Shown here one piece after another: positions 796 through 34,486 of a stretch of DNA of 64,000 bases. Below the pieces are notes generated by a model that saw only the letters and a program-made list of their open reading frames with translations, was not told the origin of the DNA and ran no database searches. This DNA comes from Promethearchaeia archaeon (GTDB lineage: Archaea > Asgardarchaeota > Lokiarchaeia > Sigyniarchaeales > SOKP01): positions 160,001-224,000 of the forward strand of contig JAHQWK010000002.1 of the NCBI GenBank assembly GCA_029856145.1, given 5' to 3'. The stretch's first letter is position 1, and each line of letters starts with the position of its first letter. A program made the position numbers and the translations under genes.

Positions 796-1026
796 AATTA
801 GAATCCTGAAATTCAATATGAGAATTCTCTTTAATTTATTGATTTTTACATCTATTCTAAAATATTATTTCAACCTTTAGAAATGAAACATAATTTCTAT
901 AAGAAAAAATCATCGTTTGTATGAAAAGGATATAAGAAAATTTAAAATTCAGTACTTAATTTTCCAAAATAATAATTTTAAATATAAAAATCAAAAATTT
1001 GAAGATTAATTAAGAGGTTGGAAATT

Positions 1027-2540
1027 ATGAGTTATAAACTTCCTACAGAGAAGGACCTTGATGCTATGATCGGCATTGTGGGTAAAGAATACGCTACAAA
1101 TAACAAAGCGATTACTGCGTCTTACCTGGCGAAATCAGTAATGGGTTTAGAAATCTTTTATTCAAAATCGGATAATGACTAAAGAGCCAAATCCCTGATA
1201 TCGTCATTCGACCTAAATTCGTTGAAGAGATTCGCAAAATCTTAATATATTGTTCCGCGGAGAAAATTGCAGTAAGTCCGGTCTCGGGGGGATTGTCTGG
1301 TGGGTTTTCGTGCCCAACAATCAAACCTGGCGGAGTGCTCCTTGATTTAGGAAGAATGAATAGAATTATTGAAATTGACGAGGAAAATCGATATTGTATC
1401 ATAGAACCAGGGGTTACAAACGGTGAACTTTGGGCTTATATGCACAAAAACCACCCAGATTGGGCCCCTCCTATTCCTGATGGTGCTCCTCCTGCAGCAA
1501 CCGTTATGGGAGACGCAATAGATCGTGGATTTTCATTGTATACATCTTCAGTAGGTCCACAAGGAGATAATTTTATGTGTGGAGAAATTGTTTTTCCAAA
1601 TGGAGATGTGGTACGAACTGGTTCATGGGCGCTTCCTTTTGCAAAACCTTTCTATAAGTATGGACTAGGGCCTGATATGTGGTCATTTCTAATGGGCAGT
1701 CAAGGTGCACTTGGAGTAGTTACTAAAGCGGCTGTTAAAATATATCCTCACCCCAAATATAAAACAGTTGTAGTGTGGGGGATGTCAAATCCTTATGATA
1801 TGCAAGATTTAACTCTTGAAATTGCAAAACAAGAATTCGGAATTTCTCATAACACAGTAATGGTTCAAGGAGGGAATTATCCTTTAGTAATGGCTCGTTG
1901 GCCTAAAGATAAAGTTCCCCATGATTATAAGTTCTTTGAAGGTTTAGGAATTCCAGAATGGTGGATGAATTGGGAATGTTGGGCTCAAACTCAAGAAGAG
2001 TTGGACTATGTAGTTAATAGAATTAATAGTATGGCAGAAGATTTTAAAAAAAGAGCAAAAGATCCTGATGCTATAAAACCTCAAGAACTTCATCCTAAGC
2101 AAATCGCAAGCAGAATGAAAAAACCAAACAAAATCGCAATTCCTTACAGTTTTTGGGAAGCTGGCTTTTTATTTATCACATGGTATACTCCATGGCCGGA
2201 ATGTGGACACTTTGCTGATATGTATTGTAAAGCTATGGAAAAGTATGGATTTCCACCAGTTATGTGGATAGCAAGTATTGAACGGTGTAGACAAGCAATT
2301 TGTATGCCAATCGTCTGTTTTGATTCCACTAAGCAATCAGATTTAGAAAAGGTTCAAGAGATGAATAGAGAAACAACTGAATATGCTCTTAAGCAAGGTT
2401 GGTTAAATTACAGACCAGATCCATACATTCATATCCAAGCTTATTATCAAGCGGGGATGTATTGGAAATATTTAAGAGCCTTTAAGAAACTCGTAGATCC
2501 TAATATGATAATGCATCCAGGAAGACTAGCTCTTCCATAA
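1027..2540 (+). CDS. FAD-binding oxidoreductase (FAD_binding_4, GlcD/D-lactate dehydrogenase-like), two exons 1027-1152 and 1185-2540, predicted 493 aa
   Basis: GAGG SD then ATG 1027 (MSYKLPTEKD...VMGLE), in-frame TAA at 1180-1182. A second frame from 1185 reads SQIPDIVIRPKFVEEIRKIL and continues into the 1293-2540 ORF (LDLGRMNRIIEID, IEPGVT, GSQGALGVVTK, DPNMIMHPG). A BHB intron joins the two frames. Confidence 0.88.
1153..1184 (+). other. putative 32-nt BHB (tRNA-endonuclease-type) intron in an mRNA
   Basis: Central helix UUAG(1147-50)/CUAA(1179-82), bulges AAA(1151-53) and AGA(1183-85), inner UC/GA plus UUAUUC/GGAUAA stem, outer GGU/GCC. Cleavage after the 2nd nt of each bulge restores the reading frame. 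Confidence 0.8.
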
Positions 2541-2560: not shown

Positions 2561-3982
2561 ATGGCTAAAACAGGAATGGAAAGATTAGAAGAATTGAAAA
2601 AAGATATTTATAAATGTATTCACTGTAAGGCATGCAGATTCGCTTATTCTGGCGAACCTGACAGAGAGGGAATAGGAGAATATGCAGGAAAGCAAAGTAC
2701 TGTACTTTACGAAGGAATGGTAGACGCTTGTCCGGCAGGTATTGAGTATGGATGGGAAGCTTTCTGGAATGCAGGTAAAATGTGGATTGCCCGATCAATT
2801 TTAAGCGGGGACTTAGAATTTAGTGATGAAGTTAGGGATGTCATTCTACCATGCATTACGTGTGGTCAATGTTCAGCTCAATGTGATAATAAAATTCGTA
2901 CTGTTGATATTATAGAGTCTTTAAGAGCAGCATGTATAGAATCTGGAGTGCCAATGATAGAAAAACATGAATTAGTAGACAAACTAGTGAAAGAGCGAAA
3001 TAACCCATACGGTGGTGCTGCTGCTGATAGATTTAAATGGGCTAAAGATGCCGGCCTGGAGAAATTTATCAATAATAAAGATGCGAAAATTGCATATTAT
3101 GTAGGATGTACTGCAAGTTACCGTCAAATAGAGGTTGCTGTTGCGACTGCCAAATTATTCGAGCTATTAGGCATGAATTTCACGCTAGTTGCAGACGAAG
3201 TATGTTGTGGAAGCCCATTTTTCAGGATAGGAGCAGTTGATACCGCACAGGGATTAATGAGGAAAAATCTTGAAGCTTTCAAGAATATGGAAATGGTATA
3301 TTTCAGCTGTGCTGGGTGTTATAGAACGATTACCATTGATTACCCAAAATGGATGGCTGAAGACGAAGAACTTCCTTTTAAAACACAGCATGCATTTGAA
3401 CTAGTAACAAGGTTAGTCCAACAAGAGAAAATCAAATTCAAACCAAATAAGGAATTAAAAGGAAAGGTGGTTACCTATCATGATCCCTGTCATACTGGTA
3501 GACATTTTGCTGTTGATATGGAACAAGATATTATCGCAAAATCTAAGAACCTTTTGATGGATAGCCGTAAAATCAAGAAAGCAATTGAAGAGTGGTATGA
3601 AGTTCCACGTGTCATTCTAAGAAAACTTGAAGAGGACGTAGGAATTAAATTTAATGAGATGTACCGTATAAAGCTTGATAGTATGTGTTGTGGTGCTGGT
3701 GGAGGAGTAAGAGCAGGATATCCAGAATTTTCTCTCAGAACCGCCAGTTTGCGATGTGACGAGGCAAATGCTGTTGGAGCAGACATTTTAACAACCGAAT
3801 GTCCCTTCTGTTGGAGAAATCTCTACGATGCCAATGAAATGTACAATCACGGTATGGTTGTTATGGGTGTTCTTCAAATGATTACAGAATATAATCTTTT
3901 GGATATTTTAGAGAAGCCCAAAGAAGAAGATTTCTTAACACCATCTATTAGAGAGGCAATGGAAGAAGAACCTAAAAAATGA
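2561..3982 (+). CDS. Fe-S oxidoreductase, GlcF/HdrD-like (two 4Fe-4S motifs plus two CCG domains)
   Basis: CIHCKAC...CP, CITCGQCSAQC, YYVGC, VCCGSP, SCAGC, YHDPCH, CCGAGGG, ECPFC; GGAGG SD; starts 20 nt after the FAD subunit (operon). Confidence 0.92.
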   Translation: MAKTGMERLEELKKDIYKCIHCKACRFAYSGEPDREGIGEYAGKQSTVLYEGMVDACPAGIEYGWEAFWNAGKMWIARSILSGDLEFSDEVRDVILPCITCGQCSAQCDNKIRTVDIIESLRAACIESGVPMIEKHELVDKLVKERNNPYGGAAADRFKWAKDAGLEKFINNKDAKIAYYVGCTASYRQIEVAVATAKLFELLGMNFTLVADEVCCGSPFFRIGAVDTAQGLMRKNLEAFKNMEMVYFSCAGCYRTITIDYPKWMAEDEELPFKTQHAFELVTRLVQQEKIKFKPNKELKGKVVTYHDPCHTGRHFAVDMEQDIIAKSKNLLMDSRKIKKAIEEWYEVPRVILRKLEEDVGIKFNEMYRIKLDSMCCGAGGGVRAGYPEFSLRTASLRCDEANAVGADILTTECPFCWRNLYDANEMYNHGMVVMGVLQMITEYNLLDILEKPKEEDFLTPSIREAMEEEPKK

Positions 3983-23207: not shown

Positions 23208-23312
23208 GGGAGGGTGGTCTAGATTGGTATGATACTCGGCTGGGGGCCGAGTGGCCGGGGAAAGACCAAACGTTTCGGTGGTCTTCCGGAAGTTCAAATC
23301 CCCCCTCTCCCA
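23208..23312 (+). tRNA. tRNA-Pro(GGG) with a 31-nt BHB intron (23261-23291) in the T stem, position 52/53
   Basis: Acceptor GGGAGGG/CTCTCCC; anticodon arm CTCGG-CTGGGGG-CCGAG; spliced T arm GGGGG-TTCAAAT-CCCCC; BHB with CCGG/CCGG helix, bulges GGA and AAG, inner stem AAGACCA/TGGTCTT; CCA not encoded. Confidence 0.93.
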
Positions 23313-30988: not shown

Positions 30989-31645
30989 TTACGCAAATAG
31001 ACTTATAATATCGGCGACGTTAATCTCTGTTAGATCTTTAATAATTAATTGAGCACCAAGAAGTTCTTCTTTATCATGTGTCGTTGTAAGGGCAATCGAA
31101 ATCATTCCCGCTCGTTTAGCTGCTTCTATACCAACTGGAGCATCTTCAATAACTAAACAATTTTTTGGATTGATGTTTAGGATTTTAGCAGCATTTAGAA
31201 ACACATCTGGTTCAGGCTTCCCATTCTTAACATCAGCTGCTGTAATAATAACGTCAAAATAAGCTTTGATTTTTAGCTGAGATAATAATAACTCCACATT
31301 TTCAGGTGGCCCACTTGAACCTACAGCCAATTTGAAGCCCTCTGATTCTAATTCTTTTATAATTCTTAATACCCCCGGCAAAGGTGTTAACTTTTCTCTT
31401 ACCATTTCCCGATAATATTGCTCTTTAAGACTAGCCCATTTTTCAACAATAACTTTATCTACTTCTGGACCTAATAATTTTCGAGTAATTGTGGGTGATT
31501 GTTGACCAAAGGTTTGTTCAAACATATCTCTTGTAAAATTTACACCAATTTCTGCTGCCATTTTAACCCAGCTTTCAAAATGAATGGGTCCAGTATCTGC
31601 TAGAACTCCATCCATATCGAAAATAACACAATAATCACTAAACAT
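30989..31645 (-). CDS. HAD-family phosphatase (beta-phosphoglucomutase-like)
   Basis: FDMDGVL, GKPEPD, IEDAPVG. Confidence 0.9.
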   Translation of the reverse strand: MFSDYCVIFDMDGVLADTGPIHFESWVKMAAEIGVNFTRDMFEQTFGQQSPTITRKLLGPEVDKVIVEKWASLKEQYYREMVREKLTPLPGVLRIIKELESEGFKLAVGSSGPPENVELLLSQLKIKAYFDVIITAADVKNGKPEPDVFLNAAKILNINPKNCLVIEDAPVGIEAAKRAGMISIALTTTHDKEELLGAQLIIKDLTEINVADIISLFA

Positions 31646-31725
31646 AGTTTTAACTATAAAGAACAATTAGATAATTTTTATAGAGAATCATTAATTTTTA
31701 AGAATTACAAATAGAAAATTATAAT

Positions 31726-31830
31726 AGTCCGGTAGTCTAGTATGGATAGGGCGCTGGCTTGCGGAGCCAGATATCGAGGGTTCAAACCTCTTAGCATATA
31801 GCAAGGAGGGAATATATCCCCCCCGGGCTA
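31726..31830 (+). tRNA. tRNA-Arg(GCG) with a 30-nt BHB intron (31786-31815) in the T loop, position 58/59
   Basis: Acceptor AGTCCGG/CCGGGCT; anticodon arm CTGGC-TTGCGGA-GCCAG; splicing restores TTCAAAT; BHB with GTTC/GAAT helix, bulges AAA and ATA, inner stem CCTCTT/AGGAGG; CCA not encoded. Confidence 0.92.
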
Positions 31831-31867
31831 CTAACTTTTAAATTACTTGGTTAATATTTAATTTAAT

Positions 31868-33397: not shown

Positions 33398-34486
33398 ATG
33401 TGGCTTATATGTCCTATTGCTGGCGTTGGCAAAAGATTACAACCTTTTACGTATTCTAAGCCAAAGGCTTTCTTGAAGATCGCAGGGAAAAGGTTAATCG
33501 ATCATATTCTTATAAAGTTGAAAAATTCATTTCCAAAAGGTACTAACATTTGCTTTATTGTTGGTTATAAAAAAAGGCAAATAGCAGAGTATCTTAAAAA
33601 AAAACATTCAGATTATTTTAATCTCCATTTTATAGAACAAAAACCATTAGGATATGAAGCAGATACACCATTTTTTAGTGGGCTTGGAGATGCGATTTTA
33701 TTAGCCAAAGATCTTGCTTTAAATGACGATTGCTTTGTATTTTTAAGCGATAGACTTCCTATAGAGGATTATTCACAAATTTTATTACATTTTCATCAGG
33801 ATATTTGTGATGGAGTAATAAATGTTAAACAAGTAAAGAATCCTCAGTTTTACGGTGTAATTGAATTGGATGGAACTGGAATTGTTAAAAATATCGTTGA
33901 GAAACCAAATAAACCTAAATCAAATTATGCCGTATCAGGAGTGTATCTTTTCGGAATGAGTATGACCCCACGATTATTTGAGTCATTAGAGGAACAGAGT
34001 AAAATTCCATTAGAAAACGGTCAAGAACATACCATTACACCAATTATTCAACAACTAATTGAAGAAGGTTTTAAACTAAAAATCAATGAAATGAAAAAAG
34101 ATATATTAGATTTTGGACGACCTGAGAGTTTAATAGCTGGCAATCGTCTATTATTAGAAGAAGTAAAGATTCAGGATCCCACATATGAGAAATTATTTCA
34201 ATCTGGTAATATAATCGATTCAAAAATCGTTCCTCCCGTTTATATTGGAGAGAATAGTAAAATTTCTGATTCTGTTATAGGTCCAAATGTATCTATTGGA
34301 GATAACGTAGTTTTAGATAAATGTATTTTATCTGAATCTGTTATTGGTGATGGAGCTAATTTGAAAAAGATAATATCTTCTGAGAGTATTGTAGGAGATT
34401 TTACAATTTTAGAGGATTTAATCAAGAAAAGTATTATTATAGGAGATTCTTCTTATATTACTACTTCTAATATGAAATCATTTTGA
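33398..34486 (+). CDS. sugar-phosphate nucleotidyltransferase with C-terminal left-handed beta-helix
   Basis: AGVGKRLQPFT..PK, VEKP, DFGRPE, hexapeptide repeats. Confidence 0.9.
   Translation: MWLICPIAGVGKRLQPFTYSKPKAFLKIAGKRLIDHILIKLKNSFPKGTNICFIVGYKKRQIAEYLKKKHSDYFNLHFIEQKPLGYEADTPFFSGLGDAILLAKDLALNDDCFVFLSDRLPIEDYSQILLHFHQDICDGVINVKQVKNPQFYGVIELDGTGIVKNIVEKPNKPKSNYAVSGVYLFGMSMTPRLFESLEEQSKIPLENGQEHTITPIIQQLIEEGFKLKINEMKKDILDFGRPESLIAGNRLLLEEVKIQDPTYEKLFQSGNIIDSKIVPPVYIGENSKISDSVIGPNVSIGDNVVLDKCILSESVIGDGANLKKIISSESIVGDFTILEDLIKKSIIIGDSSYITTSNMKSF

Follow-up and report, generated by a model that had tools for sequence, protein, structure and literature searches.

A probable bulge-helix-bulge intron in the pre-mRNA of an Asgard archaeal FAD-binding oxidoreductase

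The stretch of DNA considered here, termed the window throughout, spans 64,000 nucleotides (nt) of contig JAHQWK010000002.1 (G000:C2:160001-224000) from a Promethearchaeia archaeon, whose genome, G000, is an assembly of 3.55 Mb in 32 contigs with ~30% GC and a completeness of 97%. Close to the start of the window is a gene for a FAD-binding oxidoreductase (PCMH-type, GlcD/D-lactate-dehydrogenase-like) of an Asgard (Promethearchaeota/Loki-type) archaeon, and its reading frame is broken by 32 nt at positions 1153-1184. This block is very probably a functional bulge-helix-bulge (BHB) intron of the pre-mRNA that is removed by the tRNA-splicing machinery. It lies in a splicing motif whose pairings are conserved and covary among species, its excision yields a protein collinear with uninterrupted homologues, the interrupted gene is under purifying selection, the genome encodes the requisite machinery, and a molecule joined at precisely the predicted nucleotides is found in a public library.

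The interrupted gene and its splicing motif

The gene is read from ATG 1027, 9 nt downstream of a GAGG Shine-Dalgarno-like motif that can be read in the sequence at 1014-1017 (+ strand), and is composed of the following parts.

Exon 1: 1027..1152, + strand; 42 codons, MSYKLP...SVMGLE, the last codon being GAA 1150-1152; matches the N-termini of intact 494-497-aa homologues
Intron: 1153..1184, + strand; 32 nt, shifting the frame and holding an in-frame TAA at 1180-1182
Exon 2: 1185..2540, + strand; 451 codons and a stop (2538-2540), opening with AGC CAA and containing FAD_binding_4

Joining 1152 to 1185 gives, in translation, one open reading frame (ORF) of 493 amino acids (aa) that extends from ATG 1027 to the stop at 2540, and a complete match to Pfam PF01565 (FAD_binding_4; E = 1.8e-21) begins at residue 4 of exon 2. 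The intron boundary can be moved by 1 nt, as A1153 and A1185 are the same base. A preliminary description of this DNA had placed the GAGG, the ATG at 1027, the end of VMGLE at 1152, the 1153-1184 block, its TAA and the frame shift where they are found on re-reading, and its 493-aa spliced ORF with a FAD_binding_4 opening is likewise upheld. The 55-aa peptide that it assigned to unspliced RNA must be corrected, the actual product being 51 aa if translation begins at ATG 1027, and 54 aa if it begins at TTG 1018.

When exon 2 was used as the query, 641 relatives were found, of which the closest bear the names Promethearchaeota, Lokiarchaeota or "Promethearchaeati" archaeon, and the best full-length ones are 494-497 aa long and up to 90% identical. 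Residue by residue, more than 100 homologues without an interruption are collinear with the spliced product. Excision gives a product reading ...ASYLAKSVMGLE followed directly by SQIPDIVIRPK..., in the same register as the intact homologues, which run ...ASYLAKSVMGLESQIPDIVVRPK... without a break. The contiguous MGLE-SQ.PD that had been expected of orthologues is present as an uninterrupted VMGLESQIPD in the intact 494-497-aa proteins. Because the homologues are continuous over the joint, the 32 nt encode no residues and nothing of the protein is lost when they are removed.

The geometry at the two junctions is that of the canonical archaeal hBHBh' motif, with each 3-nt bulge located 3' of its strand of the central helix and the two bulges on opposite strands. 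The elements of the motif are as follows; the changes noted are those seen in an alignment of 13 sequences that includes a divergent relative, L034.

Outer helix h: 1144..1146 GGU with 1186-1188 GCC, + strand; 100% of alignment cells paired, one-sided changes only
Central 4-bp helix H: exon UUAG 1147..1150 with intron CUAA 1179-1182, + strand; 100% paired in 13 sequences, with one double and one single change
5' bulge: AAA 1151..1153, + strand; predicted cut after A1152, observed joint 1152/1185
3' bulge: AGA 1183..1185, + strand; predicted cut after G1184
Inner helix h' and hairpin: 1154..1178, + strand; UC/GA, then a 6-bp UUAUUC/GGAUAA helix and a 6-nt loop, from the fold and pair counts
Exon-exon stem: 1128..1138 with 1195..1205, + strand; 10 bp, 96.7% paired, both partners altered at three pairs in L034

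The pairings previously claimed for the motif (GGU/GCC, UUAG/CUAA, the AAA and AGA bulges, the hairpin, and 1128-38/1195-1205) are all as described when reread from the sequence. At 1184, which is the second base in the 3' bulge, species have either G or U, a free variation expected of an unpaired bulge base. When the whole segment was shuffled, a complete frame-restoring h3+H4+h'2 motif turned up by chance at a frequency of 1e-4, and when the intron alone was shuffled the frequency was 7e-3; the comparative evidence presented below goes far beyond this shuffle-based estimate. A search of curated RNA families, including ribozymes, gave no Rfam match at E <= 1 in positions 900-1500 of the window. 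A self-splicing ribozyme of the group I or group II type was also considered and rejected, as 32 nt is far too short for either and Rfam was without a match in the same interval.

Conservation, covariation and selection at the intron site

The distribution of the insert was determined by searching 154 genomes of the order with an intact homologue, and most of these hold an uninterrupted gene. In 10 further species of the genus, an insert of 32 nt occupies exactly the same site; G046, of a different genus, has a 31-nt insert there; and a further NCBI contig of a metagenome-assembled genome (MAG), L034, has a 36-nt insert that is unrelated in sequence to the 32-nt form. The 32-nt form is also found at this site in six metagenome contigs of the Joint Genome Institute (JGI) that come from several projects, which brings the independent assemblies with an insert, besides the window's own, to 18 (11 GTDB species genomes, six JGI contigs and one MAG contig). 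Furthermore, the DNA runs of three studies contain 0.92-0.96 of the sampled words of the stretch, the share in run X1 being 0.96. Both observations argue against an artefact of sequencing or assembly in this particular MAG, for which only the prior that MAG frameshifts are often errors can be cited. The preliminary description had itself named such an artefact as one way in which it might be wrong; given the other assemblies, the likelihood of one is negligible.

Covariation was assessed in the 13-sequence alignment (A1) under the BHB-plus-stem structure, with slid 3' partners as the control. Pairing is observed in 96% of the alignment cells, versus 24-47% with the slid partners, and eight pairs are changed on both sides, a number equalled by 0 of 500 shuffles. 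In L034, for instance, the central helix reads CUAG/CUAG (U-A to C-G, both sides changed), the outer helix reads GGC/GCC, and the exon-exon stem holds three compensatory changes (AU to GC, AU to UA, and GC to UG). The central helix of G046 is UUGG/CUAA (A-U to G-U). Covarying BHB stems had been predicted for insert-bearing orthologues, and the stems are indeed kept and covary.

After excision, all 12 of the complete intron-bearing copies give ORFs of 493-496 aa, and the pairwise ratio of nonsynonymous to synonymous change (dN/dS) among intron-bearing copies is 0.045-0.07 at dS 0.7-2. The low dN/dS and the full ORFs indicate that the gene kept its coding capacity for a long time following the arrival of the insert. 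Among the copies in the intron-bearing genomes, the interrupted one gives the best match in the search, and no uninterrupted copy scored equally. Selection is also evident on the exon sequences that pair around the intron, because third-codon identity in the flanks from -27 to +21 (48 nt) is 0.954 in intron-bearing alleles versus 0.65-0.68 in the rest of the gene, whereas the same flank of intron-less orthologues shows a third-codon identity of 0.50-0.57, a level also seen over the remainder of the gene. Synonymous sites are thus frozen only in the intron-bearing alleles, so that selection for RNA structure acts in these alleles alone.

The gene tree requires at least 4-5 changes of intron label, and includes an eight-species clade in which all members carry the intron (support 100/100). 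The nearest relative of the window's gene is the intron-less copy of G072 (95% aa, 83% nt identity). These label changes, together with the intron-less nearest relative, imply that gains, precise losses or transfers have occurred.

The joined molecule and the enzymes that could produce it

The junction was examined in four sequencing runs, three of which (X8, X18 and X19) are without coverage of it. The fourth, X9, is from marine sediment and has METATRANSCRIPTOMIC as its library source. It holds a 248-nt contig in which 1057-1152 is joined directly to 1185-1336, with 1 mismatch and a shorter side of 96 nt, and which carries the exact predicted junction of GGTTTAGAA to AGCCAAATC; no X9 contig covers the intron. 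Only 1 nt is common to both sides of the joint, making an artefact of k-mer assembly unlikely, and the contig can be assigned to the window's species because the DNA of the closest orthologue without the intron is just 83% identical. The cuts predicted after the second base of each bulge coincide with the observed joint 1152/1185, and the resulting protein is the one collinear with intact homologues; the junction peptide predicted from the spliced mRNA is SVMGLESQIPDIVIRPK. The contig is good but not conclusive evidence for splicing, and is probably a spliced transcript. The junction-spanning molecule that the preliminary description had sought is thereby found as far as the exact joint is concerned, but its source is not unambiguously RNA, the library being flagged as possibly DNA. 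The joined 41-mer was also sought in JGI metagenome contigs, with 0 found; six contigs with the same flanks hold the intron-bearing form.

It is conceivable that the gene is a decaying pseudogene whose RNA is never spliced, and that the joined contig of X9 is DNA of an intron-less strain. The uncertain library type of X9 leaves room for this view, and the changes required by the gene tree, read as gains and losses, show that precise losses do occur. However, twelve species keep the full ORF on both sides of the insert, with the low dN/dS given above at saturating dS, and in these genomes the search gave no uninterrupted copy with a score equal to that of the interrupted one. Covariation and frozen synonymous sites would not persist in a pseudogene, and 0 JGI contigs have these flanks without the insert. 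Finally, even if the X9 contig is DNA, a deletion falling exactly on the BHB cut sites, with a repeat of 1 nt, would itself suggest a spliced-RNA intermediate. On this evidence, pseudogene decay is very unlikely.

Splicing of the oxidoreductase pre-mRNA would require a splicing endonuclease and a ligase. The preliminary description had invoked EndA and RtcB, and G000 encodes both, with two EndA-domain genes (alpha and beta) and one RtcB gene. The EndA ORF on C11 (198 aa; L001 1177-1773) retains Tyr/His/Lys of the catalytic site, and its best alignment is to the catalytic chain of the heterotetrameric Aeropyrum pernix enzyme (3p1z_B), including the KPR-containing loop. The EndA ORF on C24 (205 aa; L002 1423-2040, minus strand) carries KDS in place of the KEHS of Methanocaldococcus jannaschii EndA, and so lacks the catalytic His. 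Judged by these residues, the C11 ORF is the predicted catalytic subunit and the C24 ORF the predicted structural subunit. Such a pair fits the published Asgard EndA, an (alpha-beta)2-type enzyme with an L1 loop tied to broad substrate specificity (PMC5829648).

The window also contains tRNA genes whose introns match the mRNA intron in size and in build, the order of elements being bulge, long hairpin, 4-nt helix strand, bulge. ARAGORN recognises a tRNA-Pro(GGG) at 23208-23312 only after removal of a 31-nt insert in the T arm (23261-23291), and a tRNA-Arg(GCG) at 31700-31860 only after a 30-nt excision. The same program finds only 19 tRNA genes in the whole of this nearly complete genome, several with implausible long introns, and is unusable as a tRNA census of G000, serving only as a sign of heavily interrupted tRNA genes. 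Most G000 tRNA genes are probably too interrupted for standard tools, and a preprint reports that Asgard tRNA genes are heavily interrupted and contain non-canonical introns (bioRxiv 10.64898/2026.10.13.758758).

In the proposed pathway, the pre-mRNA would fold so that exon UUAG pairs with intron CUAA, flanked by the two 3-nt bulges, and this central helix would be framed by the inner hairpin on one side and, on the other, by the outer exon-exon helix prolonged by the 10-bp exon-exon stem. A heteromeric (alpha-beta)2 EndA would cut after the second base of each bulge, and RtcB would ligate the exons and leave the 32-nt intron to be released, probably as a circle. The 493-aa enzyme would then be encoded only by the spliced mRNA, and unspliced RNA would yield the 51-aa peptide. 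The acting enzymes, the chemistry of the ends and the circularisation of the intron are here modelled on established EndA/RtcB biochemistry.

One could also imagine that no RNA processing takes place, and that the ribosome hops over the 32 nt, in the manner of phage T4 gene 60, or changes frame. The gap does contain a hairpin and an in-frame stop, and archaeal cbf5 introns were formerly mistaken for frameshifting (PMC2738675). Yet matched take-off and landing codons are absent (GAA is followed by AUC, not by a stop, and AAG precedes AGC), as is a slippery site, and the feature that covaries is the UUAG/CUAA pairing, UUGG/CUAA in G046, and not codon identity. Moreover, the insert is 31, 32 or 36 nt long while the BHB geometry is constant, and a nucleic acid without the 32 nt exists in X9. 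Translational bypass or frameshifting is thus highly improbable.

Several observations nevertheless count against removal of the block by splicing. Under the nearest-neighbour model, the BHB lies 1.8 kcal/mol above the computed minimum free energy (MFE) fold, which has a rival centre, GGUUU/GAGCC; RNAfold recovers the outer stem and the hairpin, and prefers this other pairing in the centre. The fold put forward in the preliminary description therefore stands with respect to its pairings but is not the fold of lowest computed energy. The covariation comes mostly from two divergent sequences, L034 and G046, and the ten 32-nt introns, being closely related, do not count as independent observations. 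With regard to X9, the strategy field of the run is WGS, its longest contig is 40 kb, and it was flagged "RNA? (probably DNA)", such that the joined contig could be DNA of a nearly identical intron-less strain; the joined form also rests on a single contig of depth 3.55.

The MFE fold bears on a further possibility that concerns the oxidoreductase gene together with the gene that follows it.

Downstream partner gene: 2561..3982, + strand; CCG-domain / 4Fe-4S dicluster protein (HdrD/GlcF/TfrB-like), Pfam PF02754 and PF13183

The NCBIfam matches of the partner are each under their curated cut-off. The same order of oxidoreductase and CCG-domain gene is found in L034, and this conserved adjacency suggests a two-subunit 2-hydroxyacid-type dehydrogenase. 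The two genes are probably in a single operon, and the intron follows the first 126 nt of the leading gene of this two-gene unit. Such a position, together with the early translation stop on unspliced RNA and a competing fold of lower energy than the BHB, is what would be anticipated if the intron can be spliced but its splicing is conditional, with the alternative fold or limiting EndA acting as an on/off switch for the operon. This proposal refines the reading of the block as a spliced intron rather than replacing it. However, the pairs of the competing fold are not conserved, as 1184 may be G or U and L034 is unable to form U1147-A1185, while the BHB helices are 100% paired, and X9 assembled only the joined form. 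Conditional splicing is unlikely.

Further introns and comparison with known systems

The intron at 1153-1184 is not the only insert in this gene family. Near codon 370, inserts of 34 nt, 31 nt and ~28 nt are found in G140 (L053), G047 (L054) and G104 (L048), respectively, and the one in G140 forms a perfect hBHBh' (CAGG/CCUG and UGCUUG/CAAGCA). Near codon 233, related introns occur in G100 (L052, 29 nt) and G097 (30 nt), with hairpins that covary, and near codon 401 there is a 30-nt insert in G144 (L049) that is in frame, contains no stop, and has a CCAG/CUGG helix. Some of the shared sites in the family hold unrelated intron sequences. The same-genus copy of G097 (L047, G097:C7:14400-16400) has four inserts.

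G097 insert 1: L047 ~374-404, 31 nt
G097 insert 2: L047 ~498-529, 32 nt
G097 insert 3: L047 ~1009-1036, 28 nt
G097 insert 4: L047 ~1120-1149, 30 nt

Without these, the full 1482 nt of the G097 gene aligns to the intact orthologue, making it, by alignment, a candidate four-intron archaeal protein gene. Gene calls in the family are also affected. Truncated calls had been predicted for interrupted genes, and at L034 the protein P0013 is indeed called from MVRPK, just after the intron. Homologues P0044, P0081, P0079 and others were called from an internal Met (MCGEIVFPNG..., ~residue 172) on contigs of 16-120 kb, and the genes that encode them may have further interruptions upstream.

Five other protein genes of G000 are interrupted in a similar manner.

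Mevalonate kinase (mvk): G000:C3:203065-203095 (L055 166-196), + strand; 31 nt splitting ...KTILFGE / HFVVYG..., central helix GGUG/CACU
aIF2-gamma: G000:C5:~34200-34229 (L056), + strand; 30 nt with two in-frame stops, splitting the P-loop GHVDHG / KTTL
Undecaprenyl-diphosphate synthase (UppS): G000:C3:~195586-195615 (L057), - strand; 30-nt hairpin insert splitting IIDG / NRRWA
Ribosomal protein S3 (rps3): G000:C8:~31419-31454 (L058), - strand; ~30 nt with in-frame stops, KH_2 in exon 1 and Ribosomal_S3_C in exon 2
NifU-domain gene: G000:C10:33334-33363 (L059), + strand; 30 nt, NifU profile divided into 1-42 (exon 1) and 43-67 (exon 2)

The exon-2 frame of the mevalonate kinase scores above cut-off with TIGR00549, the profile being matched from position 11, and aIF2-gamma scores above cut-off with NF003077, its exon 2 matching the profile from position 22; the exon-2 frame of UppS matches the Prenyltransf profile from position 5. 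That essential genes are interrupted alike indicates that the cell routinely splices mRNAs.

A genome-wide census of G000 was attempted with strict and relaxed BHB scans, filters for ORF merging and codon usage, and, as controls, cut sites displaced by 1-2 nt. The strict motif has 258,067 matches, and the oxidoreductase intron is among them; in the other interrupted genes the motif is relaxed or the first exon is very short. Canonical and displaced cut sites gave indistinguishable numbers in this de novo census (~5,000 versus ~5,000, 850 versus 782-925, and 693 versus 634-741 loci). The whole-genome scan suggested in the preliminary description thus recovered the target intron but no canonical excess over the displaced control, and it provides no count of introns in coding sequences because chance pairing at 30% GC and adjacent same-strand genes swamp the signal.

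Taken together, the interrupted genes make it reasonably likely that protein genes of this Asgard family, essential ones included, commonly hold BHB mini-introns of ~30 nt of the tRNA-intron type, up to four in a gene, which are gained, lost and replaced at recurrent sites, and that routine EndA/RtcB splicing of mRNA is a part of gene expression. A multi-intron system on the scale of a genome appears not to have been described previously. No description of BHB introns in Asgard protein genes was found in the searchable literature, whose coverage leaves out subscription journals, and in a survey of 2020 cbf5 was the only such mRNA intron besides a case in a 5' untranslated region (UTR) (PMC7714728). 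What the oxidoreductase adds is a metabolic Asgard gene with comparative proof of a selected splicing structure, in a setting where the phenomenon reaches essential and multi-intron genes. If confirmed, these introns would make mRNA splicing directly testable in the prokaryotic relatives of eukaryotes, and would raise the question of how a cell that couples transcription to translation coordinates splicing with both. They would also expose a systematic error of annotation, in which such genes are called truncated, split or pseudogenised.

Splicing of XBP1 and HAC1 (by IRE1 with RtcB or Trl1) resembles the proposed splicing of the oxidoreductase in that it is non-spliceosomal and catalysed by proteins, removes a short intron whose excision changes the frame, and, in animals, uses RtcB for ligation. 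Unlike the BHB considered here, the motif in XBP1 and HAC1 is a twin stem-loop, and the endonuclease is IRE1. A search of G000 for the IRE1 RNase domain (Ribonuc_2-5A) gave no match, but the control genomes were equally silent. The parallel with XBP1 drawn in the preliminary description stands as an analogy only, and not beyond that. Similarly, the bypassed region of T4 gene 60 is a short non-coding gap that interrupts an ORF and contains both a hairpin and a stop codon, but the oxidoreductase gap is without matched take-off and landing codons, its BHB is conserved, and a joined nucleic acid exists.

Closer counterparts are found among substrates of the archaeal splicing endonuclease. The HVO_1309 mRNA of Haloferax volcanii has a BHB intron in its 5' UTR that is a substrate of the splicing endonuclease in vivo and in vitro (PMC7714728). 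The oxidoreductase mRNA is likewise a predicted substrate of that enzyme, whereas the HVO_1309 intron lies in an untranslated leader, interrupts no codons, and has a euryarchaeal host. Asgard tRNA introns share with the oxidoreductase intron a length of 30-32 nt, the same build (as in the tRNA-Pro insert at 23261-23291), a similar history of repeated gains and, presumably, the same machinery. In contrast to tRNA introns, the oxidoreductase intron has an mRNA for its host, the register of its excision is constrained by the reading frame, and its splicing must precede translation of the transcript.

The nearest precedent is the intron in the pre-mRNA of cbf5, which reportedly was the subject of papers by Watanabe in 2002 and Yoshinari in 2006. 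As in cbf5, a short BHB intron in a coding sequence must be removed for a conserved protein to be made, the intron is tied to a heteromeric (alpha-beta)2 EndA, it has been gained or lost among relatives, and the host gene is mis-annotated. In Crenarchaeota, the gene for this pseudouridine synthase has a BHB intron of 16-44 bp (Yokobori 2009, PMC2738675). The differences are that the Asgard host is a metabolic FAD oxidoreductase and not cbf5 with its intron at the codon of a catalytic residue, and that its motif is extended by a long exon-exon stem. In addition, introns occur at five or more positions in the oxidoreductase family, a single gene can hold as many as four inserts, and several other genes of the genome are interrupted. 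The oxidoreductase intron is therefore of the same class as the cbf5 intron, but in a different lineage, that of the Asgard archaea and not the Crenarchaeota.

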